NCBI GenBank assembly: GCA_965178125.1
Contig: OZ237748.1
Coordinates: 62,001-126,000, forward strand
DNA length: 64,000 bases
Direction: 5' to 3'
Source of the DNA: Bilabrum cf. latius
Lineage: Eukaryota
The position numbers were made by a program, and so were the translations under genes. How positions within the stretch are numbered: position 1 is the first letter of the stretch; every line of letters begins with the position of its first letter. A model generated the notes under the pieces. The model was given only the letters and a program-made list of their open reading frames with translations, ran no database searches and was not told the origin of the DNA. Below, in pieces: positions 1 through 64,000 of the stretch.

Positions 1-1683
1 CCCCGCCATCAGCATAGCCAAGGCCTCCCTCCGCAGTGCATTCGGGAGGTAGCCTGGGTCATCCCACACCGGCTTGAATTCGTCCTCCTACCCAGCTGCA
101 TTTGGGCCCATGCCACTTCCACCTCCAACACCAACGCCGTCCTCTTCTTCTTCTTCTTCTTCCTCTTCCTGCTTCGCCCCGATGAAGGACAGCAGGGAGT
201 CCACCACGCCACCTCCTATCTCTTTGCTGGAACTAGAGTCACCTCCCGACTCATCGGCGGCGGCACCGGCACTGGCACTGCTCGTGCGATGCCCGTCCAG
301 AGCGCCCGCAGCGACCTGCAAAGGGGCGCTCAATCCACCGGTGGACTCCCCCGCCCCTTTGGCCACGTCCTCCGCCGTCATACCCTCGGGCAGGCAGCCC
401 ATCGCCGCAACCGCAGCCCCCTGGCCCCCGTGCCGCAGCTCGTCACGCAGGAACGGCCCGCTGCCCAGCGTGCCAGGGAGACTGGCCGAAGAGCTCGATG
501 TCAGCGATGCTGATGCTAATGCTAATGATGGCAACGCACCCGCAGATCCACGGTCACCTTTGGTCGATCGTGTCTCGCCAGCTGGCTCCTCCCCTTCCCT
601 CTCCTCTTCCACCTCCTCATGCTGCCAGTCGCTGGCCAATCTGGCCCTCCCCTGCCCCTTGGCGTCCAGAAACCTCCTCCGCAGCACGCCAAGCATCTGC
701 ACCGGTGCCCTGACCGCATCGGGATGTGCCAGCATGTGAGCCAGGGGTGGCAAAGGAGTGTCCGCCCCTGCTCCCATCACCATCCCTGTCCCTTCCCCTT
801 CCCCTGCCCCCGCCTCCTCCCCAAGGAGAGCCTCCAAACTCACGCCCTCCCCAAGCTGGCATAGCCCAGCATCCGCCGCGGCCCGCTCCGCCGCCAGCTG
901 CAGTGCCATGGCCACAGTCCCACACCGTGCCATGCCCGCGGGAGAATCCGCCTGGCATGCCATACCCACTCCAATGGACCATTCAGGCGATCGACTGGCC
1001 GCCCATGCGCCCCGCCACGGGCCTAGATCCACTGGGATATCCAAGGATGCGGACGAGGACGAGGACGAGGACGAGGATGGGGCGCCTGCAGCACCACCAG
1101 CACTTGGGGCCCCCCGAGCTATCACATCTCCTGGATCGGTGTGACGAGCAATATCTTGGACCCCGGCGGCTGCATCGATCGCTCGCGAGTCCTGCTCTTC
1201 TCGCATGGCCCGCACATCGACAGGCACCCCCAGCCACATGCGACCGGCCCGAGGCCCATGCGAGCGCAGCCAGATGCCCGCCGCGGCTTCCTCGGCGAGA
1301 GGGGCTGCGGCCTAGGCCCACAGCCGCAGCAAGCCCGATGAAGCGGCTGAATTTACGGACTTGTGACCGGCCTTGCGGCTGCCTGCTATTCCAATTTGGA
1401 CCTGCTTGCTCATGGCTGTCTGCAGCTTCGCGAGACCTCTAGCGAAACGTCGCTCTCGCTCCTTTCGTCGAGATGGGCTCCAGAACTCGACCGGCCTCCG
1501 TGGAATGGTGTAGGTTACAGAAATAGGAATCATTGGTAGCTTATGGTCAGTCTTGTCGTGCTACACGTCTCCGACTGGATTCGGCTCGCTGCATTCCGCT
1601 TGGCTGCCGTCCTCTGTTCGTAACGCGTCCAAGTCCAGCGAGTTGATGGCGAACTACATCCATGAAGAAACAGTGGACGACAT
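1..1683 (-). CDS. Hypothetical low-complexity protein, 3' end runs off the window (TAG read as Gln)
   Basis: ATG at 1683. One frame is open to the window edge, interrupted only by TAG (1654, 1561, 1312, 88). It joins ORFs 1312..1533 and 88..1239 and continues as ...QEDEFKPVWDDPGYLPNALRREALAMLMAG. Confidence 0.65.
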
Positions 1684-1817
1684 GTCAATAGATGTATCCC
1701 TATGTTTTTACTGTACGACCTTGTTTCAGTTTGTGTGACATATACCAGACTTCTAAAAATGTGCACCGTACCCCTGTTTGAAAGAGCGAGAACTGCAACT
1801 CAGGTCAATACGCTAGG

Positions 1818-3050
1818 ATGCCAACGCTTCGGGAGGAAACCATTAAAGAATTTGGAGACGATGCTACGAAAGACCTGTTCGGTCTGCTCGGATGCACTGC
1901 CAAGAGCTCGCCAGCCGAACTACGACGCGGTTATCTGCGCTGCTCGCTGCGATACCATCCCGACAAGGGCGGAGATCCAAACAAATTTCGGGTAGTCAGC
2001 GAAGTATACAAGTTGTTCTAGGACGTAGACCGCCGAGCAGCATACGTGGAAGATGGAGACATCGTAGGGGCGGGTGAGGCTGGCGGCGATGCAGCGGACG
2101 CGGAGTGGGTGGCGTACTGGCGGCGCATCTTCCCCGAGGTGACTGTGGCTGGCATTGCGGCCGACAGGGTGGCATACGTGGGCAGCGAGGACGAGCGCCG
2201 AGACGTCCTCCGCGAGTATTCGCACCCCACGGTGAAGGGCAGCCTCAGGAAGCTGCTGGAGCGGGTGCCGCACACGGACGCCCGTCACTCGGCCAAGCGG
2301 ATCGCCGTGCTGGTGAACGCGTTGATCGGGGAGGGGCTGCTGGAGGCCAGCGGGGATTTTGCGGAGGGGGGTCGCTGGGCCGGCGCATCGTCGTTGAGTG
2401 AGAAGGAGAAGCAGCAGGTGGAGGGCGATCTGGCCGCCGCGGCGCTCGGGGATGCGGCCGCGGGGGTGGAGGGGGGAGCGGAGGCGGGGGAGGCAGCAGA
2501 GGCACTGAAGGCGTGGGAGGAGAGGGAGCGAGAAAGGGAAGATGATGAAGATGAAGATGGTGATGGTGATGCTGGGGCGGGCAAGGGCTAGTCCAAGCGC
2601 AAGAGCAATGGCAAGGGCAAGGGCAAGGGGAGGGGCGGATTTGGCAGGGACGGAGCCACTGTGCTGGCCCTGCCATCCTCTGCCCCTGCTTTGTCTGGCT
2701 CCTCCTCATCTGCCTCGGCTTCTGGAGCGAAAGCAAGCAAGGGCAAGAAGGGTAAGCGGGTGGCGGGAGGGGCGGGGAGGGCGGGCGACGGGGCCCAGCC
2801 GAGCAAGCGGAGGAGGAGGGAGGCGGGGGCGGGGGCTGGGGCTGGTCAAAGTGGCAGCGATGGTGATGGCGGTGGTATTGGAGCTAGTGTGGGTGGGATG
2901 GATGACCTTGCAGCCCTGATCAGGGGCAGGCAGCAGGCCAGGATGGGCGGGCTCATCGACCGGCTGGAGGCCATGGCAAGTCGAGAGAAGGGGGGCAAGG
3001 CCGGAGACAAGAGCAAGGGAAAAGGTAGGGGAAGGAAGAAGCGGGGGTGA
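1818..3050 (+). CDS. DNAJC9: DnaJ/Hsp40 co-chaperone, DNAJC9-like
   Basis: J-domain with YHPDK, then WVAYWRRIF..YVGSEDERRDV and a C-terminal DLAALIRGRQQARMGGLIDRLEA, both resembling DNAJC9. ORFs 1818..2021, 2046..2591 and 2661..3050 share one frame, joined through TAG 2019 and 2589. Ends TGA. Confidence 0.85.
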
Positions 3051-3151: not shown

Positions 3152-4693
3152 ATGGCAGACAAAACAGCTGAATCAAAAACCATGGATATTATGGGTGGTC
3201 ATGATCCAGAGCTTGGACTGCCCCCGCAAAGAGTGGTTCGCCGATCGGTTGCGGCCCAGGCGGCCGGTGCAGAGCTAGCTGGCCTTGCTCCTGCGACTAG
3301 CTCGCAGAGATTAGCAAAGCTGATGGACGGATTTGGTAAATTCGAGGGGAGCATGCGTGGTGGTGCGAGGGTGAGTCTTCCAATTTGCAACGACTTGCCC
3401 CTGGTCCTGGTAGAATGCGATACATTGCATACAGTTCGTCCGGCACGGTCCCTGCGTTCAGATCATGCCGCAATCGTTTCCATGTACACATAATAACTGA
3501 CGCAGCAACGCCGCGAAAAGGAAGAGCGCAGGCTAGCGGAGCTCCGGGAGAGAGCATCAGCCGCTGAAGCCGCCGTGGCCGCCGAATCGGGCAAGCGGCA
3601 GGAACAGGCCCGTGCCCTGCGCGCTTGGGCCGGCAAGGAAATCGCTGCGGTCGCAACCACCGCCAAGGAGGCGCTGCGGCTCCGCGCGGCAGAGACGGAC
3701 AAGCGGATCGACGCCCTGCACGCGCGCGTGGACGGTCTTGAGGCCCAGTTCAAAGAGGACAAGGCAGAGGTGCTGGCCGAGGTGAGGCGCAGAAACGAGG
3801 AATTGCTGCGCGCACTTAGCGATTTCCAGGCCCTGTTTGAGGCGGAGAAGAGGGAGAGGAGGAGCCGGGAAGCTGCCCTGGAGACGAGGATCGCCGCCGC
3901 CGAGCAGGAGACTGCCGATGCCCTGGTGGCGGAGAGGACGGCCAGGGAACAGTCGGTGATGCAGCTGAGGGAGCGGATCGCGGCGAGTTCATCGGCCAGG
4001 GAGAGGGCAGACACGAGGCTGAGGACGCTCCTCTCTGCGGAGACGTCCTCGCTGCGGACGGCGCTGGGCAAGGAGGCAGCGGTGAGGGCGGCTGAGGACG
4101 ATCAGCTGGCCGGTGCGCTGGCGAGGTATGCCTCCAGGCTACAGGCCTCTCTGCACGTGATCAACAGCGGGGATGCGGAGCTGGTGGGGGCGGCGGAGCG
4201 GCAGCGGAGGGTGGAGGAGGAGGGTGATTTGGCGGAGCAAGAGGCGGCGGGGGCGGAGATGCGGGCTGGTGCAGGGGCTGGGGCTGGGGCTGGGGCTGGT
4301 CGGAGCGGCCGCGCGGGGGATGGTGCGGGTGGTGGTGCTGGTGCAGGTGCAGGTACTAGTGTTGGTGTGCTGCGTACCCCTCGGGATGAGTACGATGAGG
4401 AGGAGGAGAGGGCGAGGGCTGCTGAGGACCGGCTGGGGGAGAGTGGGGGAACACGGCCTGGCAGGGGAAGAGGTAGGGGCGGGGGCGGGGGCAGGGGATC
4501 TAGAGTGGGCTAGCAACGTGCTGGAAGGACAGGGGCGGGGGGGAGGAGTGCGCGCGGGGGTGATGCGGGGGCGGGGACGGGGGCTGGTCGAGGAGATGCA
4601 GGGAGAATACGAGGAGGAAAGGGTGTTGGAAGGGGCAGGGGCGGTGCGCGAGTGACGGGGCAGCAGCAGCGGTCGGCAAGGGGTCGGTCGTGA
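3152..4693 (+). CDS. SF-assemblin/beta-giardin family striated-fibre protein; intron 3371..3505
   Basis: Phase-0 intron GTGAGT...CTGACGCAG gives FGKFEGSMRGGAR|QRREKEERRL. Coiled coil ends with EDDQLAGALARYASRLQASLHVINS, typical of SF-assemblin. TAG 4511 reads through to TGA 4691-4693. The start may be 3152 or 3182. Confidence 0.75.
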
Positions 4694-4768: not shown

Positions 4769-5710
4769 TCATTTGCCTTCTGCTGCTGCAGCCCCCCCCG
4801 AAGCGGCGCCAGAACCAGATCCACCGCCGCTGCCCTTCCCCTCCCCCTCCTCTTCGTCTCCCGCTGCCCCACCCTGCTGCTCCACCGCCTGAATCAGAGC
4901 AGCGAACTGCTCCGGAGTCATCATCACAGGCATGCCCCCCGCCCCACTTCCATCCTCGTCCTCTTCCTCGTCGTCTGCTAATGGCACCCGCTCGGGCAAA
5001 TCCCTCTTCTCACCATCCAGCGCGCTCGATTTGCCCTCTTCCTCTCTTTCCCCACTTGCGCCCACCTTGCGTCCGTACCACAGCTCCTGCAGCGCATGCG
5101 CGGCCTCCCCCGCCCCCGCCGCTCCTTCATCACCCTCGTCCTCCTCCTGCCACCGCGCCTGCAGTGGAACCAGACCGGCCTCGTTCGGCCTGCCGCCGTC
5201 CGCCCCCGCGAGGAGCAGGGATCGCACGCAGGCAGCACTGGCGCACACGTGTAACGCCGTGTCTCCATCGTCGTCTCCAGTGTCCGGATCTGTGCCTGCG
5301 CCGCTCTCCCGCCGGCGCTCGCAGGCTGTGATCAGCACTGAATCGGTCGTGTCTAGCTTGTCCCCTTCTACCTCGGCCCCGTCACCAGACGCAGCCTTCG
5401 GCTCTGTAATTGATTCAGCTTGTGGTTGCCATGCCAGCAATACCCTCAGAGCGTCGTCCTGAGCCCAGCTAGCGGCGGCGTGCAGCGGAGTGTACCCCGT
5501 TCCAGAATCATCAGCGGCCGTAGGCGAAACACCGTTGCGCAACCAGTACAGTACAGTTTCTACATCTCCATCTGCTGCTGCCGTCCATATGTTATCTTTA
5601 GCGTCCGCTGCCGATGCTCCGGAGCCCGCGGCAGCTGCATCTTCTCCGGCAGCCGCTTGCAAGTGCTCCTCCACAGCCTGCTCGGCTGCGCCAAAGTCAA
5701 AACCAGCCAT
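4769..5710 (-). CDS. Ankyrin-repeat protein
   Basis: Ankyrin motifs NIWTAAADGD, GYTPLHAAASW, GDTALHVC and NEAGLVPL. ATG to TGA, 313 aa. Confidence 0.85.
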   Translation of the reverse strand: MAGFDFGAAEQAVEEHLQAAAGEDAAAAGSGASAADAKDNIWTAAADGDVETVLYWLRNGVSPTAADDSGTGYTPLHAAASWAQDDALRVLLAWQPQAESITEPKAASGDGAEVEGDKLDTTDSVLITACERRRESGAGTDPDTGDDDGDTALHVCASAACVRSLLLAGADGGRPNEAGLVPLQARWQEEDEGDEGAAGAGEAAHALQELWYGRKVGASGEREEEGKSSALDGEKRDLPERVPLADDEEEDEDGSGAGGMPVMMTPEQFAALIQAVEQQGGAAGDEEEGEGKGSGGGSGSGAASGGAAAAEGK

Positions 5711-5912
5711 ATTCGTTTTGAGATACTAAGCAGATATGTGGGATGATGCCGCTATAAAAAGTGAACGCGTTCCTGTAGCGGAGGCTGAATTGAGCAAGCC
5801 AGGCCGGAACTTGCAGTTCCCGCCGGGCGGCGCGATCGTCGGTCGACCCCTTATCAGCGCCCCAAGATCTCCTCTGCAGCCCACACTCACGCAGCGCAAC
5901 ACAACACCAAGT

Positions 5913-7199
5913 TCACTGCTACCCACCCGTCACACGCAGCTGCCTCACCTCGGCAAGCCGCAAGTACCTGTGGTACAGCAGAGGGTGCGCCTGGCTCAGC
6001 GCGCCGGGCTGCTGGGCCGAGGCCGCCACCAGAGCGCCTGCGCCCCCCTCCACCAGAGCAAGGGGCATCGTGGCCGAGGCATAGCTTACCAGCGCGATGG
6101 CAAGCAGACTCACCACAGACCCACGAGCCTGGGCGTCAAGAAACAGGCCGCTGCCAAGAGCCGCAGCTCCTGCCGCCGCCCATCCCGCGAACCCCAGCAG
6201 CCTGGGGGCGCAATCGTCACCCGCCGCCGCCACCGCCCCGCTCCTCTGCAGCGCCGCCCACGTCCCCTCCGCGGCCCGCACCCACGGCACACCGGTTGCA
6301 ACCGCCGCGCCCCACCCCAGCTGATGCCCCCTCCGCAGCACCGCCAGCGCCAGCCCGCGCACCCACAGGCAGCCGGTCCCCAGCCAGGACAGCGGGCCTG
6401 CACCGATGCACCCGCACAGGCCGCCGCTACCACCACCACCACCCCCGCCTCCCCGGGGCGTGCCTGCACTTGAGGGTCGCATGACCCCACCACCACCCCC
6501 CTGACCCTGACCCTGACCCTGTCCGCTCCCGAATACGTATTCCGGATCGTCCCACCCCATCTCCCCCGACCTCAGGCCCCCCGCACCCAGGGCGCGGCCC
6601 GCCTCCGCCCCCGCCTCCGCCGCGGCCCACGCCGGCGGTCCAACAAGCCCGAAGAGCCCAGCCGCCGCGGCGCTCCCCAGCGAGGGGCCCACGGCCTGTC
6701 CCACGATCGAGGCCACGTCCCGGTGCCCGATGGCCTGCTGCGCGCCCAGGGCCCGTGCCTCATCGATCGGAGCAGCAGACCGCAGGGACACGATCCGGTC
6801 CGCTGGGGTGCGGGGAGGGACGGCACCAGCACTAGCACCAGCGCCAGCGCCAGCGCCAGCGCCAGCGCCAGCGCCAGGCAGCGAGGGCGGCTGCACCGCT
6901 GAGCTCGTGCTCGAGCCTGCCCGGCGCTGCTCCCGGGATGCTGCTCCTGGCTCCGCCTCGCTGTCGCTCTCGCTGGCCATCAGCGCCGACCCGTGCCCCT
7001 CCCCGCCATCACTCGTCACACCGCCATCACTCGTCACACCCCCGTCGAGATCGCTGTCGTCGCCACCCCCCCTCGTCCTCGACTCCTCCCTCCCCGCCAT
7101 CATCAGGCCAAACTCCTCCTCCAGCGCAGCATCTAGAGCCCCATCCTCCCCATCCACATCCACGGTCCCATGATTCCCACGGCCACCTGCAGCGCCAAC

Positions 7200-7230
<31 letters not shown>

Positions 7231-8339
7231 CTGGCAGCTGCACCAGACCCTCCCACTGCAGCAAATACCGGCTTGCCGCCGTCCACGCCATGCCAGTTGC
7301 TACCGCCAGCCGACGCCAACGCACCATCGCCGGGCAAGGCACCCTGTGGACCCAATCTGCCACCTCCCAGCCCCTCCGCGCCCTCCAGCCTAAAGCCCCC
7401 CCCCCCATCCGCCCACTCCCCGGGGCCAGTCCCCGCCCCAGCCAGCGCAAGCCGCCGCGCCCCCGCCCCCGCCGCTGCCATGCCCAGCACGCTGCCCGCG
7501 GCCGCCCCCGCCCACCGCAGCACCCCCATCAGCAGCACCACGTTCAAGCCCCTCGCCATCGGGGTGAGACCCCCCGCCTCCAGAACATGAGCTAAGGCCA
7601 TCGACCACACCGCGACCACGACGCACCAGCACCCGCACACCCCCAGCGCCAGCCATATCAGCGGCCGGTGGCTCCCCGTGGACAGGGGATCTGCCGCCGC
7701 CCCCAGTGACAGCGCAGCAGCCGCCCGCCGGTCCCTTGCCCTGATCGCCCACAGGGCGTCACCCGCGATGATGACGAGGACGACCGAGGCCAGGAGCACG
7801 CGAGCCTGGGCGAGGAGCAGCAGGATCGCCACGGCGGCGAGAAGGGCGCCAGCAGCGAGCTGCAAGAAACCGAGCAAGAGGCCCCGGTGCGCCTGGGGGA
7901 GCCGGGCGAGCGCCGCAGCCACTCCCAGCCCGAACGTGGCCGCAAGTGGCGCGCTAGCCTGGAGCGTCGCGCGGAGTGTGTACCCCGAGTGGTCTGACAG
8001 CCAGGGCCTGCGGTGGCTCGGGTGGTCTTCCTCAGCGGGCTCTCCGCTGCCGTCGTCGTTCGTGCCTGCATCCCCTCCACCGGGATCCTGAGGCTGCCGG
8101 GGCTGTATACCGAGCTTGGTGATGCCGGCAAATGCTACCAACGCAATGCAGAATAAAAGTGATGCCAGGTAGGGAGTGTCCTGCGGATTGGAGTTGGCGA
8201 AAGGTCCAAGCAACGTCCAACGAATACGAGCAAAGAGCAAACTCCAGTCAGCGCTTCAGTTCGTCACTAGGCTGCTCACAATCCAAGACGGCACTATTCG
8301 AATTGACGACTCCTACGCTCTACTCTACCCGTTCCTCAT
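5913..8339 (-). CDS. Choline transporter-like (CTL/SLC44-type) multi-pass membrane protein; intron 8181..8279
   Basis: Multiple TM segments and CTL-like motifs GPSLGSAAAAGL and GVPWVRAAEGTWAAL. Exon 1 (8339..8280, two TAGs) is spliced via GTGAGC...CCGCAG to DTPYLASLLF. Ends TAG-CAG-TGA. Confidence 0.65.
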
Positions 8340-8495: not shown

Positions 8496-11400
8496 ATGGC
8501 CGCATCCGAGAAGGTGCGCCTCAACGTGCAGATCAAGGGAAGGGATAGCACACGAACTCGAGTAGTGGCCAGGGTTGACGATGACTGGGAGGATGTGCTG
8601 GCGAAGATTGGGCAAAAGTTGCGCGTGCGAGTTCTGCGAGTGAGATCAATTTTATAAAGTTTCGGCTCAGCTTCGACCGTTTGGGGCTCGGTGGCCAGTC
8701 GAAACTCTTATACATGTTGCAAACTTCACGAGAACGGTTGCTCGCCAAGGCAGCCGTACCACGATTTTTATACCCATGGGGTCATCATAACTTGCCATCA
8801 TTACACGTTTTGTATTCGATGTATTGCCTGCTGCTGTGGCCGTGTGTTTAACCTGCAACACGGGAGGCATGGAGGCAGCGCTAGGTGTCGAAACATTTGC
8901 GTCCCTGTAAGGGGCTGCACGGTTGATGTGGGTGCAACTACTTCGGCATAGTTGCTATTATTGTCTGGATCCGCATTGTTGTTCTATTCTGGGTCATGTT
9001 ACCCCAAACGGATCGGATGAATCCCTGTTGCTTCACGCTGGATTTGTCCAGTCGCTCCCTCACCCAAGCCAAGCCCAGGTGTATTGCCGCTTCTCAAATC
9101 ATTGTCTCGGTCGATTCTGTGTTTTGATTGTTTGCCCGCTAGCAGGTATTGGCCCCGAATGGTGCCCGCGTGGACGACTTGGAGGAGGTGGAGGCGGGCG
9201 AGTTGCTCAGCGCGGTGACCGAGCAAACCGAGCGCGAGGACATGGCAACAGACGAGACCTATGCCAGGGGCTTGGCAGAGTAGAGTACCATGGGCGTAGG
9301 GAAGGAGGATCCCGGCGGATCGGGCGGGGCTGCTGCCCAGGAGCCCATGGGGGTTGGGGTGGGGGGGGCTGTCCCACCCACGGGGGCGTACAGCAGCGGG
9401 GGGGGAAGAATCCGATCGGTGGAATCTGCCCCGGTGCGAGGCCAGGCAGCGGAACCACTGCGCGGCGCCTCGGTGAGCCGCACGCAGTCGGGCAGCGGCG
9501 CCGACCTGGACCTGGGGCGAGGTGAGGTGGGCATCGCTGGGTCTGGAAGCCGGAGGGGCAGCAGGCGCACTCGCGGGAGCATGGGCGGTGGGAGCGGGGC
9601 AGGGGCGGACACGCGTTCGGCCGAGGCACAAGGCGCCACGTCGGCTGGGGAACACGGCGAAGAGAGAGCTGCTGATACGTGGGCGGCGGTGGAGAAGCAG
9701 GCAGAGCAGGCGCAGGCAGCGCAGCGACCCTCCGGATTTGCGGGCATCCTCGGCGCGCTGAATCCCTTCGGGTATTCCGGGTCAGCCGCGGTGAGGGGTG
9801 ATCAGTCCTGGGGAACAGCGAAGGACGCCCGGGGGCTGCCTCCCGGGAAGCAGACGCTGGCGGAGCGGGACTCGGAATCGGAAAGCGGGGAGGCGGACGA
9901 GGTCTCCAGCGGCGGGTACAGGGGCGAGAGCGAGAGCCCGGCGGGCGTCCTCGGTGCCGGTGCCGGTGCCGGTGCGGCGGACGGGTCCTCCAGGGGCAGT
10001 CCCCCGGCCTACGGGGAGCACTTGGTGTCTGGGTCTATGTCTGGGGCTGGGGCTGGGTCAGCTGGGTACGGCGGGGGTGCCGCCAGCAGCGGTGCCGGGG
10101 GTGTAGCCGGTCTTGGCGCGGGTGATGTGGAGGATGCAGGAGAGGAGGTGGGGGGGGATTTCCCCTCGGGGTCACCTGGTGAATAGGGGGCGTCGTCCTC
10201 GCCAGCGGGGGCGCACTCGTCATCCTCTCTGTCCCCGTCCACCCCGTACGAGAGTGCGTACCCGCTGATGGACATGTACGCGAAAGCAGCCGCCATCGTT
10301 GAACTGCAGAAGGTGGGGCCAGCGAGAGCGGACGATTTCCAGGTCACACGAGTGCTGGGCGGCGGCTAGAACGGGCTGGTGGTGGCCTGCACGTGCTCGA
10401 GGAGCCCCGACAAGACCAAGGAGTACGCCATGAAGGTGGTCTTCAACTTCGGGCTGGGGACCAACCAGGCGAGGGGAGAGTACGAGAGGGAGCACGACAT
10501 CATATCCGGCCTCATGCCGCACCCGAACCTCGTGCGGTTCTGGTCCCAGACCCTGGACCCCATCCCGGAGGCCATCGCAAGCATCCTGCCAGATGCGGCA
10601 CAGGCGTCGTACGTGCACAACGGGGAAGTAAGGCGCCGCAAGACTCAGTTCGTGATCCTGGACTACCACCCATTTTCCCTTGACCAGGTGCTCTAGGCCA
10701 TGCCCAGGCCGCTGCCAGTGGACCGTGTGCTGCGGTGGGCGGCTGACCTGATCAGGGGACTGCTACACCTGCGGGCCGGCGGGGTGTCGCATCTGGACCT
10801 CAAGCTGGACAACGCGCTCATCGCCAAAGACGGCAGACTGGTGCTGTGCGACTTCGGGACAGCGAACCGACTGGACCTGCCATTGCTAGAGGCCGAGTTC
10901 ACACACGGCATGCCGACGGGGGGCAACCCGGCGCACTCCGCGCCTGAGGTCTGGAACGCTGTCTCTCGGCTGCACAAGCACAACGGGCTGCAGCTGGCCA
11001 AACAGGCGTGGACGGTCCACTACGCACCCACTGAGGGCATGAGCAACGCGGAGCTGGCCGAGTCGGGCGGCGTGGTGGCACCTGCGCCCTCCATGGCAAA
11101 GGCAGAGACACAGGGGAGGGTAAGCTTCCGGGCCGCGGACGCGTTCTCAGCCGGCATCATGCTACACGAGATGTTCACCGGCGGGGATGCACCTCTTCCG
11201 GACTACCCCAACGGGGCCAAATCCGGGGCCGCAGCGGGCTACATCGCTATAGACCCATCCGAAGTGGCGCCGCTGCCTGGGCACGTGCCCTCCACGGCAG
11301 CCTCGCTGGTCAAGGCCCTCCTTAGGCCCGACCCCCGGGCCAGACCCCCCCTGCGATCGGCGCTGCAGGTGCTGGAGACCGCCACTGCAGATGCAGTGCA

Positions 11401-21516: not shown

Positions 21517-21795
21517 ATTGGGCTAGAAAATGCTTGAGTCGAGCACGACGGAGCTGCGGAACCAGGTTGTGGCGCCGCGCTTGGTGGACTGCCGCGTAAT
21601 TTGACAAATCGTAACTTATAGCCAATACTAGCCAATTATTGCTGATTCTGATAACGTATTCGTATTAATTGTGTAATATACTATTGAATCACCGTATTTG
21701 TAGCGTGTGAACATATTGAAATAAGTCAGGCGAGGTGTTGATCGCTTGCTACCGGCTGGTTTGAGCTCTTACCAGCCCATTGTTGATCTCTGACC

Positions 21796-52237: not shown

Positions 52238-54862
52238 TCAGTGCGCGGCGGCAGCGGCCACCACCACCAGGAGCAGAGCGCCGAGCGATGCCACGGAAGA
52301 GGCACCTGCAGAGGCCCCGTCGTCGTCGAAGAACGTGTCGGGGAAATCGTCCCCGTCCGTGCCAGACGAGGCAGTCCCCCCCGCGGGCCGGGTGGGATCG
52401 TCCAGCGCCTGGTCCTTGTTGGCGTCCAGGTAACCGGAAGAAGACCGCATGTCGAGTGTGCCGTCCTGCGCCATGGTGCCGATCTGGGAAGCAGCGGCGG
52501 AGGAGGCGGCGTCCGTCTCCAGCCTCAGGCTCACGGTGAACGTCGCCGTGGTGCCAGAGGTGGTCACGTCGGACACGCTGCACTGGTCCTCTCGGGCGCC
52601 CACCTGGCGGACGACGTCCCTGCACACCCGGGTCTTGAGAGCCTCCTCGTTGGTCCCTGCCACGAAGCCGGACTTGATGTTGGTGAGGCGGATCTTCGCC
52701 GTGGCGGGGTTGGCCGCGGCGCAGGTGGCCGGGAAATCAGAGGCTTCCAGCCCGCTGCAGATGCCCATCACGCGGGTCTTGATGGCGGACGCGCGGGGGT
52801 TGAAGTCGTTGTTGCGGCGCGCGCGCCCGCTGGTTCCCATGATGGCCAGCTCGTAGAGGGCACCATCGGCGCAGCACTCTGCCTCGGCCATGGCCGCCTC
52901 GATGGCCATGGAGCAGTTGGACGAGCAGTTGACCGAGCTAGCCTGCAGCCCGAAATCGAAGATGGGCAGGTCTTGGCCGTGGGGCACGTTCCTTCCCGTG
53001 ATCTTGCACGCGTCGTACACGTCGTCCATCGCGGAGCCCATCCGCCCGATGCAGTACTCTGTACCGACGCGCCCGCAGCCGTACTGGAGCCTGGATTTGT
53101 CCTATTCGTTCGTCCCGAACTGCTCCCCCCCGATGCTGATCACTGCCCTGCCGCATGGGCTGCAGTACCCTGCCATCTCGGCGTCGGTGGGGATGTCCTC
53201 GTCGTCGTCGTCCTCGTCGTCGTCGCCGCCTTCCTGCTGGTCGTCCCCTCCGCTCTCCCCCTCGTCATCATCGTCACCACCGAAGAGGCCCTCATCGGCA
53301 AGCTCAGGCAGGCAGTACTCTCCTCCCGCCCTGAGGCAGACGAGGTCGAAGGACTGCTGGATCTGGTCCGTGATGAGGCCCCCCTCGTCGTCGTCAAAGC
53401 TGGTGTCGTCGTCCCCATCATCTCCATCGTCACCGTCGTCGCCGTCATCCATGGCGGGCAGGTTGACGAGGAGGCCAAAGAGGCGGGAGATGCTGCGGGT
53501 CATCTTGCGATTGCAGCTCTGGTCCCCGCCAGAGCAAAGGGTGTTCACGTTGGTGGTGACGGCCTGCGTGTCGGTGGGACCCTCTCCTCCGAGCGTCTCG
53601 AAGGCAGCCTCCATCGCCTCTGCACAGTACTCGCCGTTCGAGGCAGTCAGGCACTGGCTGCGGTTCTAATAAATACACAAATAAATAGATATTCAATTGG
53701 ATTGAGTCGGAACAGTAGCATGGCTGGTGCGACTTAAATTGCGACCGAGTGAGCAACTCGCTGCCAAAAAGCGAGACAAGCCCCGCTGGCCCATACGGGA
53801 CCTTGCCGTCGGGGAAAAGGCTAAATATCACACACAAGTAACACAAACGAAGTAACATTAGCTCAAATTGGTCTCACAGGTCGATCGACACGGCGTACAG
53901 TGCTACGATCCCGCACACTCCCTGCGACGCTTGCTCGGGGGAGATCTGATCCTGGGCTTCCCGAAGCTTGCGGGCGCACGTTGATGGGCACACAGAATCG
54001 TAATCGAAGTCGTCACCATCGGCGTCGTCGCCCTCGGAGGGCTGCGTCTGCAACATGCGCCTGTTGCCATCGTCGCCGTCGTCGCCGCCGGTGCCAGGAA
54101 GCACTCCGTTGCAGTCGTTGAATGCATCAGCAATAATGTTGCAGCATGCAAGGTTGGGATTGGCATCGCAAATCTAGCTAGGGTCGCCCTGAAGCATGCG
54201 AGCCATGGCGGCCGTGGGAAGAGACGCGCGCCCGGCCAGGTGAGCACCGTATCCGAGCTTGCCATCCATCTGCGGGGAGTTCACGCAAGGATCGAACACA
54301 TTAGGTAGACAAAATGGCTCTAGGATGCATTGGACGCGCGACGCATGCTACAGAACTAGCCCAGCGAGAGCACCACCTGAGGTTTCTGCGGGTAGCTCGG
54401 ATTGTCGCCGACGCCAAACAGTGCGACCCGCGCACGTTCGTCAAGCTTGAGGAGGTGAAGCGGCACAACAAGCAAACAAAATCATTTAATTTTAACTAGT
54501 TTGGCCTATTCACCTACTGCAAGCATGCAAGCTGGCTAAATAAATGCAAGGCACGCCAGAATAGCACCTGTTCTGGCGCTCACACAAGCATCCCAATAGT
54601 TCGAGATAATGCCAAACCTCGCGAACGCACGCCAGCGGGAGCTCAATCAATACATGATACAATCCATCAGTACTCGATTGATTCGTGACAAACGAAAGCC
54701 GCGCGGTACGATCGCGAGAATCCAAGCCTGGTGCATCCTCACCTTGGACCTCAGCCGCATGGCCTGTTCGATCACCTTCGACACGCGGCCTTCGGTACTA
54801 CCCAGCTCCATTGACATGGCAAGTGCAGACACTGCAGCTATCATCGCGATGGCAGAGCGCAT
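52238..54862 (-). CDS. Secreted, probably GPI-anchored Cys-rich surface protein; introns ~54271..54742 and 53658..53877
   Basis: Signal-like MRSAIAMIAAVSALAMS. Three copies of a C-x5-7-EYC motif, acidic linkers, and a C-terminal GASAGASSVASLGALLLVVVAAAAAH before TGA. TAG at 53102 and ~54177 read through. Confidence 0.7.
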
Positions 54863-55329: not shown

Positions 55330-58300
55330 TCAGAAATCGTCGTCCTCGAACGCATCCGCGGGCACCGAAGGGAGGCCGACCCACACTCGCCCCGTCCTCC
55401 TCTGCCAGCCCCTCTCCCTCAGGGCGGTTGCAACCGCAACGCGCCAGCCCGCCGCGGGGTCCCATCGCACCCCCCTGCCGCCGGTCTGCTCGACGCCCGG
55501 CGGCCCCGCCTCACTCGTCACACCGTTGCCCTCCACCCAGCAGGGGAACACGCCCAGCTGGTACGTCCCCTTTGGGCTGACGCTCACCCCGTCGGATAAC
55601 CGGAACAAGAACCCGTGCCTGGGGCACCGGACACATGCCCCCCCCCCCCACTCCTCGATGTCACCCCCCGCCAGGTTGCCCCCCGCGTGGGGACACTTTG
55701 GCGCGCTCGCCATTGCGCGGCGCCCCTTGCGGAACACCACCACGTCAGTCCCCATGACCCGCACCCTGGTCCCGAGCTCCTCGTTCCCACCTGAACCAGC
55801 ACCAGCACCAGCACCAGCACCAGCACCTGCGGCGGATTTGGATGCACCTCCGCACGCTCCTGCCGGAATCGATCCCGCGACTCCGCGGCTGGCTCTGAAC
55901 CGACTGAACCGAGGGGTGGCGATTCCCTTGGCCGCAGCAGAGGACCGCGCCGCTGCAACGGGCCGCCCATGTTCCGCAACCGGTGCGCGGCGCCGCCTCA
56001 CGGCCCCGGTGGCCGTGAACTCGTACACGGGGGCCGGCTGCATCGCGGCATCCTTCAGGTCCTGTATGACGAGTGCGGTCGGGAAGTAGGGCACCCCGTC
56101 GGGGCCCATTGCGAACGACTCGGAGTCAGAAACGTCGGGGCCTGCTGTCCCCGACGCATCAGTCTCATCGCACTCGTCACACTCCTCCAGCCGCAGCCGT
56201 ACCCGCGGATCGCCCGAGGATGGCGACGACGAGGAAGCCGGCTGCAGCAGCACGGGCAAGGCCGAGGAGGAGGGTGATGACGAGCACGGGGCCGTGCCCT
56301 GTTTCTGGGCATCTGTGTGACGAGTGCGCCGGCGCTGGGGGCCCAGCGACCACGGGCTCTCGGTGTGACGATGATGATGGCCTGCCGCCCCTCCTGCACT
56401 CCCATTCCCCCGGCGAGGTGTGACGAGTGAGGTACCCGCCTACCTGGTACTGCCCCGCGGAGACCCCGCACTCGTCACATCGCTGCCCCCCCCTACGCTC
56501 CCTTCCCCCCCGCCAGCCCCCACACCCCCAACCCCAACCCCAGCACCCAGCCCGAGCCCCAGCCCCAGCCCCAGCCCCAGCCCCAGTCCGAGCATAGCCC
56601 CGCCCCCATCCTCTCCGCACTCATCACCTCCGCTGGCATACCCACCGGGGGCCGGCCCAGACAGCGAATCAGCCGTCTGGCCCCTGGGTCTGTGCGTGCG
56701 CAGGTCTCCGGATCCGGAGCCAGATCTCGATCTGGACCTAGCATCGGCACCGTCCCAATCCCCACCTGCTCCTCTGGCTCCACCACCGGCGTGTGTCACA
56801 CTCGTCACACCAGCTCTCGCCTCCGCGCCCCAGTCCACGCGATCCTCCCCTCCCGCGCTGCTCCACCCGTGGACCCGCCACTGCTCACTCGTCACACCGC
56901 CACCGAACCCGTCCGTGGAGCCGCTCCCCCACAGCATCCCGCTCCTCCTCGCCAGTGCCCTGACTCGCTCCTTCGCCCTCCTCCCCTCCTCAGGGGTCTG
57001 CCCCCGCCGGTGGGGACCTCGGGCACCCGGCTCCGAGTCGGTGTCGCTGTAGCCGTGATCCGATCCGTGATCCGATCCGTCCCACAGGCCCCCTTCCCCT
57101 TCCCCGCTGGATGCAGACGCCCGATGGTGTGACGAGTGCACGAAAGACGATGAGTCGTCCAGGAGAACAAGAGGCGACGGGGCCTGGCCATTGCCACCAC
57201 CTTCACCACCATCACCATCCTTGCTGCTACTGCTGGGCTCTTCACTCGTCACATCATCGCCGGCGACAGGCCCTGACTCTCCCGGTGCGTCGCTGTGCTT
57301 CCTCCGACGGGTGCCTTGGCTGCCCTCGCTGTCCGGCGAGGGCGAGTGTGACGAGTGCCAGAGCTCCCCCGCTGCCTCCGGAGGCAGAGAGCAGGGCGAC
57401 CGTGAGCCGGCGGGCGAGTGTGACGAGTGCACGGGGTCCATGGCCATCGCGGCGGCGGCTGGGGGCAGCAGCCTAGGGGCCTGCATGGAAGCGGAACCTT
57501 TCAAATGCGCGGCGTCGTTCCCGCTCAGGAACCCCACCCCGAGTCCGGCTGACACGGTGGGAGGAGGCAGTCCCAGCCCTGCTCCGATCGATCCCCGTGA
57601 GGCATGCACGCCCGCCCCTGCACTGGGCCCGGCAGCGGCAGCACCTGCTTTCGCTTCCACTCCCACCGCATCCAGTGCTGGCCCAGGCTGCAGCATTCCC
57701 GTCCCCGCCACGCCCATATCCATGCCCATATCCATGCCCATGCCCATGCCAGGGAACCGTCCCGTAACATGCCCGCCCACCGGACCCACCCATCCCCGCA
57801 CTCCAAACACGGTGGACCACGGCGAGCCCGGGCGGCGACTGTGTGACGAGTGCGCGAGCGACGGTGCACCGGTGCGTGGTCCCTGCACCTGCCCCTGCCT
57901 CCGGTGCTGTTCCCCACCGTGATCACGATCCAACGGCATGCCTCCGTCTCTATCGCCCCTTCCCTGGATCGACGAGGCAGTGCCGCCGCCTTGCGATCCC
58001 GGGGGCGATTGTGCTCCGGCGCCCGCGCCCGCATACGTCGCAGCCGGCCGCCGGCTAGTGCCCTCGGACGGGCCGCCGCTCGCCCACGACGACCCGGTAG
58101 GTTCCGCAATTGCACCGGCGCCGCGCAATCGCCGCGCCACCGCCGCTGCAGCCCTCCTCTGCCTCCGGATCGTCCTCTGGCGAGCGTCCTCACCACAGTG
58201 CGATGCACCCGCCCCTCTCGGCACACCGTGGATCGTCGTCTCTTGCCGATCTCCGTTGCTGCGCCCCTGGTGGCGGGCGCGTGACGAGCGATCGTGGTGT

Positions 58301-59388
58301 GACGAGTGGGAATCTGGTGCTCTGAGGGGCGACTGGCCGCCCACTGGCACTGCAAGCGGCGGGTACTTCCGTCCCACCCCATTCATACCGCTCCCATCTC
58401 CCTTCCGACTCGGCGGAGTGCTGCTGCTGCTGCTGCCGCTATTGCTATTGCTGCTGCCAATGCTGCTGCTGCTGCCATTGCCGCCCATGGTCCCAGACTG
58501 CTTACTGTGGGTGTCCAGAGGGACTGTTCCCTGGGGTTCTCCACTCGTCACACGAGGAGGGGTCCTGGGACTCGGAGCTGCAGCCGCACCCTGCCGCTGC
58601 GGGGACGTCTGCCGGAAGGCCGATGCCGCGCTTTGCCCCGGCACCCATCCCTGCCCCCGCCCCTGCCCCCGCCCCTGCCTCTGCCCCTGTGCCTGTGGCT
58701 ACCCCCAGCCTCCAAACCCCAGGCCTGTATCTCCCTCTTCCTCCCGATGCTGCCTACGCTGCTGCTAGTTCGCGCCCCGCTCACCCCCGCCCCCGGGTGG
58801 GGTCCTCGTCAGGGGGCTGCCAGGGGTCGGCAGCCCCCTGTTTCCCTCGGGTTTCGACTGACCTTCTTGGATAGAGGCAGAGCTGGTGGTGGCAGAACGA
58901 TGATGCCGCGGCGGCGTGACGTACCCCCTGCCGGCGCCGCTGGTTCTTGTTGTTGCTGCTGCCGCGCCCGTGCTCACTCTCGCCCGGGGAGGCGATGCTC
59001 GAGACCAGGACAGCCGCTGCTGCTCGGATGCAATCGCGAGCGGCGGGGTCGCGAAAGAAGTCTATGATTCCAAACTGTGCTAGAAATGATTCTGCCGCTC
59101 TGGTGACCACCGAATCGGTTTGGGCGCGGCCAGAGTGCCTATTGCGCTCTTGATTTGCGATGCAACCGGTAGTTGCTTGTCCGACTCTCCTTGCACAGCG
59201 CTGGTGTTTATGGCCTTACTGGCCTGCAGCACGTGGCCTTGCACTGCATTGCGTGCCGCTGCCTGTTTGGCGATCGTGCGGTCAAGTATGCTCTCGCCAG
59301 CTGTCGAGTCTGCATGCTCGGCTTGTTGAGGCTTCTCGCGAGCGCCATTCTGACAGCGATCAGGGCCGGTTCCCGATGGCGCTGCCAT
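55330..59388 (-). CDS. Large disordered protein with a C-terminal Rieske [2Fe-2S] ferredoxin domain, ~1350 aa
   Basis: CPHAGGNL...CVRCPRHGFLFRLSDG Rieske motif. ORFs 59080.., 58765.., 56440.. and 55330.. share one frame and are separated only by TAG. Ends TGA. The start (MAAPSG) is inferred. Confidence 0.7.
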
Positions 59389-61044
59389 AATAAGAAAGAA
59401 GAGATTGGCTCTCCTATGGTGCGAAGCGCGCACCACTTTAAGGTGCAGAGTCGAGGCGTGTGACGGGGAGACGGGCCACGCTTTTTTCAAAGCGCAGGTG
59501 CTCCGGGTGGATCGGCTAGGCGATACGAAATTGCGCGCCCGGGTCAATGATGATTGGTGGTGCTCGGGCCGATATTTGAGGATGTATATCAAATTGGACT
59601 ATTGCCAGTGTCTCTTGCAAAAACTTCCGAAGCAGCCGGCGCAGGCAACCCGAGCCTCCCCTTCACCGCGCCAGCGCTCTGCACCCTGCCTACAAGTCGT
59701 CGCCAACCAGATTAGAATTCTTCGATGCACCTATCCAAAGCGAGGAACTCCTCTGCGCATTTGCCCCCCAAGCTTTTCAGCGACGACACGCCCTCTCGCT
59801 TCATGCAGCGAACCTGCGCGCGGAGCTCATCCGGACAGTGCGTCTGCAACGCCCGTGCACTGCGAACGCGCGTGAGAAAATAGTCTACAACCAGTATAAG
59901 GAGGTGGAAACATGTGCAGGGCTCGACTGTCGACAGCCGCACGCAGCGCATCCAACACCAGAGCAACTGACGAACGGCCCACTCCTAGCCGCGTGAACAC
60001 AGCAGTAGCGGCTTCAACCTTACATTTTCATGGCTCGCTTCTAGAACTGCATCTGCAAGGGCTTCGAGTACGAATCCTTCAAGTGGTCCGCTCGCCCCTC
60101 CCCTGCCTGTCGCGCCCAGAACATCTCGGCGATGGCCGCCCTCCTATCGATCGCAACGTATTCCACAATGCTTCGGGCACACTCATCCGCAAGAAACCTA
60201 AGCAATGTCTTTTCCTCGCTGTCCTCCGAAGGGGTAAGGGCGCGTGATCGCCCGATGGAATTCTCGGGACCGTGCCTCCAGCTCTCTCTGGTGTTTGCCT
60301 GCTGCACAACCCACGTATCCTCCGGTCCAGGCTCGCGCAAACTCTCAGTCGGAGATTTGAAGGGCCTAGCCATCGCTTTCAAGATGCTAGAATTACTTGA
60401 TGATACCAAATACACCATCGAGCTTCGCATTTGCGCCGCGCATCTCTCAGGGGTACGTTCCGCAATCCCTTCAAAGTTCCCCTCGGGTTGTTGGAGTCTT
60501 ATGACAAACAATTGTTCATTGTCGATCCGTGGCCGCCATTTCAACAAGGGTGAGAAGCAGTGCCTGATCGAGCATTATGTTGCGAATTAATCTCGTAGAT
60601 TGTTGCGAGTACTAGTCCAAGTCAAGCCGGTCGAAGCACTGCGAATATTGCCCGCTTGTTTGAGCCCGGCTTGAAGTGATCGCTGGATTGGTTGTTCCAG
60701 CGCATGATCGACCGGTAATGCGCTGACGTTCAAGCTTACTAGAACCACCATTGATTTTTGGATTTGTGGATTGATGTGTTCCTTGGGGTGAATGGCCGAG
60801 TCACTATCCTACAGCAGATCCACGTGTGGAAGGGTACTTTGGGTTGTGTTCGTGTATTGCTGCAAGCTGCTGCTCAGTTGCATCACGTACAGCCTGCCTT
60901 CTTGCGTGTTTGGTTGAATGAATCTCATGACTCTGACGCACAGCGAGTGCTCCTTGGCAGTGCCCAGCTCTTCGCTATCTGTGTTGGCTCACCCAGCTGT
61001 GCACCTTGCCCGCATCTCGCAGACGTAGAAGGACAACCAGAGCA

Positions 61045-61283: not shown

Positions 61284-61562
61284 CATGGGGGTACGACCAG
61301 CCGATCATTGCGCCTCTGCTCGCTCTCTCGCTTTATTTATCGCTCTTTCCTGCTGCTCTTCTCTTTCAATTAATATATTAATTTTGCAGCCACGGCACTC
61401 TCGGTCCAACCCGGTTGCAGAGGATTGGGTATCCATTGTGTTTCTTATACTTAGACCAGATTATTTCAAAATACAAGCAAATTTACTCTCTCCAGATCAT
61501 GTGTGAAACTCGTAACTCAATCAAGCTGCCACCTATGCGCCTGCGAGCCCAGGGACACCTCC

Positions 61563-64000
61563 TCACCTCTGCACACCTTGAAAATGCTGCGTCCGTATGT
61601 GTCTACGCATGTTGTCCTTCGCGGCTGAGCTGTGGTTACACAGGGGGCACACGAACACGGGTCGGTCCTCACAGTGGCGCAACGCATGACTGCGTGCACC
61701 GGCCTTGCACGAACTCACATGAGGGCACACAGGACACTGGTAGGTGACCGCCCCCTCGTGCTTGATCTAATGATCGTCGCAGTGTGCGATTGCGCTCGAG
61801 AGGCTGCCAGCGAAGATCACCTTGAGGCACTCCTTGCACCTCTTCTCCCACCTTCTACCGCGTCCTCTTGTCACCTCGCCTCGCTAGGCCTACTGGAAGA
61901 GCTGCGGGTGGCACTCCTCGCAGTGGGCGCGAAGCGCCGCCAACGAATCGGACGTAGCGTTGCACTCGGCACAGGTGAGCCAGTCCCGCGTGACGAGCCC
62001 TGGACGCACCACCGGTACGACTTCCCCGAGCAGCCCCTCCATCCTCTCCACGGTCATGCCCGGCTCCGGCTCAACGAACGTGCGAATGTTCGACCTCTGC
62101 TCGCCCGACAGCTCCGAGGCCTTCTTGCGGACTATCCCTTCAATCGCTGCAGCACACTGCGCCGAGGAGCCCCGCGATGATGACTCTTGAGCGCCTGCCT
62201 CTGGTGCCGACGCGCGGCGGTGCGGGGCATCCGGGCCAGCACCAGAGATGCCCGCACCGCCCTGTCCCGCTCTGCTTCCAGGGCGCGAATCCGCTGCACT
62301 GGAAGCGGATCCGTGCGACGAGTGGTCGCTGCAGGCCGCACTGGCAGCCGATCTCGAACCCTTGACGCCCTCCTACGCAACCCCTGTGCTCGACCGAGCG
62401 GCTGCACGCGCGCTCGACCCCCTCGGCTGCGCGACGCCCTCCGGACACACGGCGTCCAGTATGCGCGTGGTCACGCTCGCGCGGAAGTCGCCCATCGACG
62501 CAGGCAGGGTCACCACCCGCGAGCCAAGCTGATCGTCCAAGTGCTTCTGCAGATGTCCAATGAGCTCGTCGGTGAGGAAGTCGGGCTGGAACGGGTGAAG
62601 CACCCTGCCAAAGTCACTCTCGCAGCCCCCCGGCGAGAAATGCACGGCAAACCTCCGCCGGAGGTCCGAGTGGCGCTTGCCCTTCTTGCTGTTGTCAATC
62701 TTCTCCCTGAACATGCGTGCCTCGTCTACAATCCTGTCCGTGTAGTACGACAGCATCACGAATGTCCTGACCATTGTTGGCACCTCGGTGCGCCCTCCTG
62801 TGGCGGGCCAGTCCTCCGATGGGCGCCCTTGCATGAATGCATCGGCAGCGCTGAATAGGGCCATGTCGTGCCCTCCCTGTTCCAACGGAATGACAATGAC
62901 GTCCTGGCTGGCGGTGTTGTACCGCATGCAGTTGGTAATCGTGTTGAAGGCGTCCTCTGCCCCGCGCACGCTAGGCAGGTACTTTTCCGCCGGGCCGAGG
63001 GTGCTCGAGATCGGCGAGCCGCCCTGCCCGGTCGGCCTGAACTCGATGCTGAACAGCTCTATTTTCTGCCTGCGGGTGCTGCCCGTATCCCTGAGGTCTC
63101 GAAGGAACTCTGCCACCTGCGGCGCGCTGTCTCGCAGCAGCACGACCCACGCCAGCTTTGGCGCCGCCTCGTTGCGCGATCTGACCGTGTCACGGTAGTG
63201 CGTCTCGGCGAATGTGTCGGCCATCCGGAACGCATCGGCGATCGCTTCCGGCTGCACGGACACTGTGAGTCCCCTGAAAGGCACCTTTGTCGGGGCGAAG
63301 AACTCGAGCGGCCAGGCTCGCACGAGCGATAGGCACTCCTTGTTCCATGCATCCGCCTGCACCGGCTCCAGTACCTCCCTCAGGTATCGCTGCAAGTCGT
63401 GCACCCGAGTCCCGGCGCGGTCATTGGCGAGTGCAAGCTCGAGCGCCCCCCAGGCACTGCTGCCGCGGAAGGTCCCGTGCAGCAGGCGCCATGCGTTGTA
63501 GGCCAGCACGGCTGCGCTGGATGCAACCCCACAACGCATGTGCCCAACGACGGTGGCGGCAATCGCAGCCATGTCGGGTGCCTCTAGCCTTGCGATGATC
63601 TGCCTTCCCTTGGCTGCGAGCCATGCCCACGTGGCTGGCGGCAGGTTGCCGATGCCCTGCTGCGCCTGCTTCTCGGATGTCCACTGCATCGAGACGAGCA
63701 CACCTGGCAGTCCATCCCGCAGGCCATTAGCCTTGCAATCGTCCCAAGTGCTGCAGAGCTCTTTCATAGCCCAAAACGTGGGATCCGAAAAGTCCCACTG
63801 CGACGAGAGTGCCACCGACTCGGTGCAATTATAGCAAAACTGCGTGACGTCCTGAAGGGTGGGAACCTCCTCGCCATCGGCCGATGCAGCATCCCTTTCG
63901 ATCTGGTTCACGATGTGCCTGGCAATGCCGTGGACCGACACGCCCCAGTGCTTGACCTCGGAGAGAAAGTCGAACACTTTCTGCCGCAGCGCTGCTCCCT
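61563..64000 (-). CDS. Large hypothetical protein with four C-terminal C2H2-type zinc fingers (5' end outside the window)
   Basis: ORF 62373..63977 continues through TAG 62373 into CAEC..RAHCEECH, CKEC..HCDDH*IKH, YQCPVC..RSHALRH and FVCPLC..RRHIRTQH. Ends TGA 61563. Confidence 0.75.

Follow-up and report, generated by a model that had tools for sequence, protein, structure and literature searches.

Background

Changes to the nuclear genetic code are rare, even more so when they affect UAG and UAA differently. In the openly available text of two accounts (PMC5304391, PMC11687900), the lineages in which the two codons part ways are the rhizarian exLh, Iotanema spirale, Scotinosphaera, one oligohymenophorean ciliate, Protocruzia and phyllopharyngean ciliates. 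Iotanema spirale reads UAG as Gln and uses both UAA and UGA as stops, with UAA as the primary one, according to the main text of its description (Panek et al. 2017, PMC5304391). The reassignment of UAG alone to Gln is also reported, in the portion of the survey available, for Protocruzia tuzeti and twice in phyllopharyngean ciliates (McGowan et al. 2024, PMC11687900; NCBI table 15). Joint reassignment of UAA and UAG to Gln (NCBI table 6) is listed for many ciliates, dasycladalean and related ulvophytes and hexamitin diplomonads, and additionally for oxymonads and Amoeboaphelidium (open text of PMC5304391). Other residues have been assigned as well: nuclear TAG encodes Ser in Scotinosphaera according to the accessible account (Li et al. 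2021, PMC8271138), and UAG encodes Leu in exLh as summarized in PMC5304391. Here we describe 64,000 nucleotides of Bilabrum cf. latius (assembly GCA_965178125.1, contig OZ237748.1, positions 62,001 to 126,000; hereafter the window), in which an earlier note made from the letters alone had proposed that TAG is translated, almost certainly as Gln. The codon is read as sense in these genes, glutamine is its best-supported meaning, and neither TGA nor TAA shares this use.

TAG as a sense codon

The gene models (n=16, in 18 segments totalling 15,415 codons) contain 92 in-frame TAG, 84 of them downstream of the first ATG, together with 0 TGA and 0 TAA, which confirms the proposal that the long genes of the window are interrupted in frame by TAG only. 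The same DNA read in the +1 and +2 frames holds 247 and 295 TGA, 92 and 114 TAG, and 26 and 42 TAA, respectively. As the bounds of the open reading frames (ORFs) were defined by TGA and TAA, the zero counts for those two triplets arise partly by construction; the comparison of in-frame with off-frame counts indicates that TAG is not avoided in frame while TGA and TAA are excluded. Independent, non-circular evidence for a sense TAG comes from frame lengths and from the order of domains. Off frame, a TGA or TAA is met about once per 50 codons; single frames nevertheless run for 2753, 1851 and 1498 codons. The longest frame in the window under the standard code has 874 codons, and reading TAG as sense opens frames of 2753, 1851, 1498, 1340, 1171, 1146 and 907 codons. 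Treating TAA as sense brings no further gain. Reading TGA as sense lengthens frames everywhere, as expected from the prevalence of TGA over the other stop triplets where DNA is GC-rich.

Domains are preserved across the TAG codons. In the GNPTAB-like gene, Pfam matches to Stealth CR1, CR2, LNR, CR3 and CR4 follow one another in order and in one frame over residues 358-2714 of an ORF with 17 TAG, and four blocks match human GNPTAB (7s05, E = 2.5e-128) across the same 17 codons. A Pkinase match followed by three SPRY matches likewise occupies one frame spanning TAGs in the kinase gene (Pfam), and the Stealth CR2 region, the kinase domain and the J domain each contain in-frame TAG. Codon arithmetic places TAG in frame at 10367, 12056, 22276, 22429, 24955, 41588 and 61767. 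The counts of the earlier note were reproduced, with 17 TAG in the GNPTAB-like gene and, when counted after the first ATG, 13 in the Tudor-like gene and 6 in the kinase gene; from stop to stop the latter two ORFs hold 14 and 7. Within the window, TAG is beyond reasonable doubt a sense codon.

Identity of the encoded residue

Glutamine is the residue best supported by the alignments, and we consider this assignment highly probable. The most informative single site is the TAG at 24955..24957 (+) in Stealth CR2, which is aligned to a Q of human GNPTAB (7s05). The column comprises Q 112, H 6, A 1, Y 1 and S 0 among 120 homologs, strongly upholding the idea that this TAG occupies a GNPTAB Gln position. 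Comparison of the kinase and ubiquitin-like part of the query with 1.84 billion representative proteins yielded two near-identical fragments, P0248 and P0247, each traced to a 3479-base Logan contig that is presumably the same for both. They represent a close homolog that is split in two, with the break between query residues 243 and 259. P0248 has Q at the TAG at 10694..10696 (+) in the kinase domain (183/188 residues identical around the site), and P0247 has Q at the TAG at 12056..12058 (+) in the ubiquitin-like domain (314/401 identical, the next 35 residues being identical); TAG 11783 falls in a gap of the P0247 alignment. The second of these sites had been suggested to fall at a Gln position of ubiquitin, and a homolog about 80% identical has Q exactly there. 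Because the CR2 column contains no Ser in 120 homologs and both near-identical homologs carry Q, Gln is favoured over Ser by several orders of magnitude.

Sequence context and codon usage provide evidence that does not depend on these columns. Q adjoins TAG at 17/184 neighbour places, against a background of 4.0% (p = 0.0012), so that the placement of TAG in Gln-rich runs (22276, 22429, 51727), first remarked upon by eye, is upheld statistically. A homolog-free context classifier based on the six nearest residues, evaluated in held-out trials of 92 true sites with 30 runs per residue, places Q at the top for the 92 TAG sites in a tie taken up below, and it ranked true Q sets first in 24/30 held-out runs. 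TAG is also unevenly distributed: 6/3124 codons in conserved segments, defined as matches to Pfam domains or close homologs, are TAG, compared with 86/12,279 elsewhere (p = 0.0004). CAA shows the same tendency, with 3 in conserved segments and 118 elsewhere, and CAG stays common in conserved segments. TAG behaves like a minor, non-preferred synonymous Gln codon under the strong bias of the conserved parts toward G/C-ending codons.

Scanning JGI metagenome contigs with a DNAJC9 alignment recovered a distant relative of the window organism, represented by locus L001 of 2085 bases and locus L002 of 1131 bases. L001 (1-2085) keeps the head-to-head gene pair of window positions 1-3050, the two genes lying about 130-160 bases apart in either sequence, and its identity to the window is 63% in the DNAJC9 domain and 42% in the neighbouring gene of unknown family (L001 1-846(-)). 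The DNAJC9 frame of L001 contains two TAGs upstream of the conserved C-terminal helix, the first of which is found at the same place in L002, and the third codon of the neighbouring L001 gene is TAG. The public protein P0244 terminates exactly at the first TAG of the DNAJC9 frame. A word search with DNAJC9 returned 2 matches, with low-complexity words crowding the result, and only P0241 aligned to the query (BLASTP); the metagenome scan with the Tudor-like protein found no relative. Since the distant relative has in-frame TAGs of its own, the sense trait belongs to a clade and to its common ancestor and not to this strain alone. The use of UAG as sense is common to the window organism and at least one distant relative.

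Several results weigh against glutamine. The alignable TAG-to-residue pairs between the window and this relative (n=5) mostly oppose TAG to something else: the window TAG at residue 18 of the gene at 1-1707 faces AGT (Ser), the window TAG in the J domain of the DNAJC9-like gene faces TCA (Ser), the window TAG at residue 132 of the 1-1707 gene faces GAA (Glu) between six identical residues on each side, and one TAG of the relative faces TCC (Ser) in the window. The J-domain column is one that we take to be usually Ser ('LSD'), and the sole relative has Ser there. In the remaining pair a TAG of the relative faces CAG (Gln) of the window within the conserved DNAJC9 C-terminal helix, where 17/29 flanking residues are identical by manual count. 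The tally of Ser 3, Glu 1 and Gln 1 contains more Ser than expected of a Gln codon. In GNPTAB, the column of the CR3 TAG is variable outside vertebrates, P0123, the closest homolog by score, has Leu at this site, and the TAG sites 389, 1175 and 2356 are unaligned in 101, 74 and 105 of the 120 homologs. Val ties with Gln in the context classifier, with His close behind. Partners at TAG columns among the tandem paralogs of the window (43 pairs) comprise Q 5, A 5, G 4, D 4, S 4 and others; the pairing of TAG 41588 with a CAA codon, previously offered in support of Gln, was a selected case, and across all 43 pairs (Q 5/43) the paralogs give noise. A stricter global alignment of the paralogs puts V, A, E and K opposite TAG, and DNA repeats spanning TAG sites gave 1 match among the 92 sites, TAG against TAG.

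The relative's three Ser partners out of five, one of them in the J domain, are what a serine code would produce, and for the green alga Scotinosphaera a nuclear code in which TAG means Ser and TAA is still a stop has been published (PMC8271138; cited in the accessible part of PMC11687900). We nevertheless regard serine as quite improbable for the window. Ser is absent from the 120-homolog column at TAG 24955, both near-identical homologs (P0247, P0248) have Q, and the partner codons AGT, TCA and TCC are all more than one step from TAG. TAG is not enriched beside S (8.2%, compared with 17.9% for S beside S), even though S strongly self-clusters, and S ranks ninth in the classifier at -13.0 log units, whereas true S sets came first in 29/30 held-out runs. 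By our own manual estimate from BLOSUM62 conditional odds, Ser is preferred to Gln only about 6:1 over the five distant pairs, far less strongly than Gln is preferred at the other three sites. The wording 'almost certainly' Gln in the earlier note was accordingly right as to the best-supported residue and somewhat overstated as to its certainty, given Ser at 3/5 sites of the relative and the Scotinosphaera code.

Assignment to another residue such as Glu, Leu or Tyr, or ambiguous near-cognate decoding that inserts several residues, is very improbable. The Glu facing a TAG in a perfectly conserved block of the relative and the mixture of partners across relatives (Q, S, E) are compatible with such decoding, and UAG-to-Glu and UAG-to-Leu codes exist according to the open text of PMC11687900 and PMC5304391. 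Against this, E, L and K each occur 0 times and Y once among the 120 homologs at TAG 24955, and both close homologs have Q. The classifier gives E -15.8 log units, L seventh at -9.8 and Y -30.5, and true E sets were ranked first in 27/30 held-out runs. As for ambiguity, a gene with 17 TAG would need efficient decoding, which suggests a dedicated tRNA.

Termination and the status of TAA

All 15 complete genes whose 3' end lies within the window end in TGA (15/15), and none in TAA (0/15), a sample of genes too small to separate a rare TAA stop from an unused TAA. TGA is the working terminator. UAA is without sense use, and the code is UAG-only. The single in-frame TAATAA lies inside a predicted GT-AG intron of the SF-assemblin gene (3371-3505; GTGAGT...CAG, 135 bases, a multiple of three), which is closed only by that pair; this intron and those described below were predicted from splice signals and continuity of Pfam domains rather than from RNA.

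A code in which TAG and TAA both specify Gln (NCBI table 6), with TAA too rare to appear in a GC-rich genome, predicts the one stop that is seen in 15/15 complete genes. We consider it most unlikely all the same. If TAA:TAG followed CAA:CAG outside conserved segments (118:391, with 86 TAG), about 26 in-frame TAA would be expected by our own arithmetic, as opposed to 0 in the 15,415 codons. Translation with table 6 extends merely the 5' leader of the Tudor-like gene and reads through the SF-assemblin intron; no real gene is lengthened.

Fidelity of the sequence

The TAG codons are reproduced in other data. Contigs from runs of three studies match 10100-30048 letter for letter at every TAG covered, and the differences listed between these contigs and the window are confined to 23162 (an ACT codon) and 25678 (a CCT codon), neither of which is a TAG/CAG codon. 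This agreement speaks against the possibility, raised with the original proposal, that the TAGs are consensus errors for CAG. The contig joints listed on the window all fall at CAG-type repeats, and none is intron-like. Pseudogenes would show all three stops together with frameshifts; all 16 models show only TAG, so the pattern is not an artefact of this kind. That the TAGs go untranslated, whether as assembly errors, pseudogene lesions or sites of mRNA editing or splicing, can practically be dismissed, as one stop triplet of three occurs in frame in 16/16 models, the three studies agree at covered sites, several TAGs lie within conserved motifs so that their removal would delete conserved residues, and the distant relative has TAGs elsewhere in the same genes.

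Identical DNA is present in runs X1, X5, X6 and X7 under three coded organism labels in three studies. In run X5, a much larger data set, the window DNA has a depth of about 2. It may be that the organism accompanies other organisms or that submitters label it differently. Contigs of X6 and X7 lie over the gene bodies, with hardly any cover at 16750-18079 and 21405-22069, and those of the DNA run X1 are continuous. As X6 and X7 come from one study, we draw no inference from this pattern; both are guessed to be RNA, and X6 has been classed as 'probably DNA'.

Placement of the organism

Two single-gene trees, both with few named taxa, bear on the affinities of the organism. A FastTree of GNPTAB CR2 unites the query in one clade (support 0.90) with the oomycetes Achlya and Thraustotheca, with Cafeteria and with environmental sequences; Thecamonas, Andalucia and animals lie elsewhere. 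The lipoyl synthase tree unites it in a clade with Bolidomonas (support 0.77). On these trees a stramenopile affinity is no more than a lead; the lipoyl synthase is 60-71% identical to those of fungi, stramenopiles and red algae alike. In a protein atlas only the SF-assemblin gave a match, most commonly in Ciliophora, and the N-terminal part of the zinc-finger gene gave nothing there. From the presumed distribution of its family, the SF-assemblin would point to a flagellate with striated roots. A G+C content of 60%, intergenic spacers 1-3 kb long and introns between 135 and about 290 bases are, in an informal comparison, unlike what we take to be typical of a ciliate macronucleus. The lipoyl synthase with its N-terminal extension and the Rieske domain argue against the anaerobic metamonads that have such codes. 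These features of the window, with the two weak trees, suggest that the organism lies outside the groups with known UAG reassignment.

A possible mechanism

The window is best explained as nuclear DNA from a eukaryote that is rich in GC (~60%) and poor in introns, and in whose cytoplasm the ribosomes read UAG as sense, most likely as Gln. Decoding would require a tRNA whose anticodon, CUA, pairs with UAG and not with UAA; such a tRNA would arise most simply through a single change in an extra copy of the tRNA-Gln(CUG) gene. In parallel, the N-domain of eRF1, with its stop-recognition motifs GTS, NIKS and YxCxxxF, would have lost recognition of UAG and kept that of UGA; for Iotanema, T32G is reported (PMC5304391). 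This mechanism is drawn wholly from known codes as described in the available text of PMC5304391. The reassignment arose in the common ancestor of a clade that includes the relative, known only from metagenome contigs. As a joint reading of all these elements we tentatively propose an independent, clade-wide UAG-to-Gln change in a probably stramenopile-related lineage that has lipoyl synthase and SF-assemblin genes, is represented elsewhere only by assemblies and metagenome contigs, and for which no code change has been described, with UGA as the only working terminator and UAA effectively unassigned; as a whole, this combination is possible but somewhat doubtful.

Gene content of the window

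The window (64 kb, ~60% G+C) carries protein-coding genes on both strands, at least 16 in all (Table 1); eRF1 is not among them. Spliceosomal introns are predicted to be present but few. The lipoyl synthase gene would comprise an exon 1 ending at 51190, exon 2 at 50903-50594 and exon 3 at about 50381-49930, separated by GT-AG introns with GTGAGA donors. No tRNA genes were found in the window, L001 or L002, and an Rfam scan of the window gave no match at the gathering score.

Table 1. Protein-coding genes and gene pieces of the window, with the number of in-frame TAG codons and the terminal codon.
Feature	Coordinates	Strand	In-frame TAG	End	Remarks
Gene of unknown family, 5' part	1..1707	-	4		Runs off window start; ortholog in L001
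DNAJC9-like gene	1818..3050	+	2	TGA	DnaJ + HTH_DNAJC9
SF-assemblin gene	3152..4693	+	1	TGA	Two exons; low-complexity tail
Ankyrin-repeat gene	4769..5929	-		TGA	
Gene for low-complexity, hydrophobic (membrane-like) protein	5913..8255	-	1	TGA	TAG two codons before TGA
Kinase - ubiquitin-like - SPRY gene	9128..14683	+	7	TGA	1851-codon ORF
Tudor-like gene	18175..21615	-	14	TGA	1146 codons
GNPTAB-like gene	21787..30048	+	17	TGA	Stealth CR1-4 + LNR; 2753 codons
Paralog 1	30875..34390	+	9	TGA	No Pfam match
Paralog 2	35798..39820	+	10	TGA	66-bp repeats
Paralog 3	40796..43519	+	8		N-terminal two thirds only
Paralog C-terminal piece (fourth)	46792..47988	+	3	TGA	59-bp array follows
Lipoyl synthase gene	49927..51945	-	2	TGA	Three exons; TAGs in N-terminal presequence (one at 51727)
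Cys-rich acidic protein gene	52238..53692	-	2	TGA	GC3 0.84
Long low-complexity gene	55330..59826	-	7	TGA	C-terminal Rieske domain
Gene with C-terminal C2H2-type fingers	61563..63998	-	4	TGA	5' end beyond window

The kinase gene has an unusual layout, with a kinase domain carrying long inserts, a ubiquitin-like domain and three or four SPRY domains. Its TAG codons are at 9140, 9281, 10184, 10367, 10694, 11783 and 12056, and the SPRY part, which makes up the last 874 codons, has 0 TAG. Homologs of the kinase part reach up to 1720 residues (P0255). The Tudor_3 Pfam match of the Tudor-like gene is below the cut-off (21.7 vs 25.8 bits). The GNPTAB-like protein, with 2753 residues, is about twice as long as the human GNPTAB construct 7s05 (1179 residues) and has very long low-complexity inserts between the Stealth regions. 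A 27-bp repeat at 28335-28551, in 8 copies, lies in its gene and encodes a 9-residue repeat.

Three to four long paralogs without a Pfam match stand in tandem at 30875-47988. Highly diverged otherwise, they have common blocks: an N-terminal FFAP.HGEAFSL, a central RHRPRD...PLLFT and a C-terminal ELRQIIVTPLFV... An AT-richer stretch at 43520-46790 (GC ~0.47 vs 0.60) lies between the N-terminal piece at 40796-43519 and the C-terminal piece at 46792-47988, and the two pieces may be one paralog divided by an insertion. Leftover ORFs, including those in the AT-rich stretch at 43.5-46.8 kb, gave no Pfam match. A 59-bp tandem array at 47928-49641 (29.1 copies, 98% matches) has its start in the final 60 bases of the fourth paralog gene, whose 3' end it repeats; the same unit also occurs where paralog 2 ends (39760-39923, 2.8 copies). 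Because 59 is no multiple of three, all three frames are open through the array.

Comparison with known codes

The window organism is similar to Iotanema in that UAG alone is reassigned, UAA is not sense, Gln is the inferred residue, and a tRNA-Gln(CUA) together with an altered eRF1 is predicted. It differs in termination, as UAA is the main terminator of Iotanema in the accessible account and the window genes end in TGA in 15/15 cases and in TAA in 0. Iotanema is moreover an anaerobic fornicate by that account, unlike an organism with a lipoyl synthase with N-terminal extension, a Rieske-domain protein, 60% GC and a GNPTAB that groups with stramenopiles. The codon change is identical to that of Protocruzia tuzeti and the phyllopharyngeans, where UAA is likewise uninvolved as far as the available text of PMC11687900 goes; the list of UAG-reassigned lineages in the earlier note was incomplete without these two.

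The base composition, spacers and intron lengths given above set the window apart from ciliates, on our assumptions about their macronuclei. Organisms with table 6 also read UAG as Gln, and TGA, as their code would predict, ends all genes seen in the window; unlike under table 6, in-frame TAA is absent from the window models. With Scotinosphaera, as far as its open account shows, the window has in common that only TAG is reassigned and that Ser appears in 3/5 comparisons with the distant relative; it differs in that the best column and both close homologs have Gln and in that the best homologs bear no sign of a green alga. With exLh, in the summary available, it shares a UAG-only reassignment in a non-ciliate protist, and it differs in that Leu is absent from the GNPTAB column (0/120) and seventh in the context test.

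A further GC-rich, non-ciliate case would be an independent data point on the co-evolution of eRF1 and tRNA-Gln. The window organism, with few TAA and TGA as the sole stop seen, could be used to test whether GC pressure favours capture of UAG alone. Its genome in long contigs permits a direct look for the predicted tRNA-Gln(CUA); that of Iotanema was unsequenced when PMC5304391 was written, according to the part of that text available. Annotation with the standard code breaks most long genes here and in relatives, and such fragments are already public (P0247, P0248, P0244). The openly accessible full-text literature contained no GC-rich non-ciliate eukaryote with UAG-only-to-Gln beyond the lineages named. 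On the published text available to us, the type of code seen in the window, UAG alone to Gln, is already known from Iotanema, Protocruzia and phyllopharyngean ciliates, and the lineage that carries it here is probably not among them.

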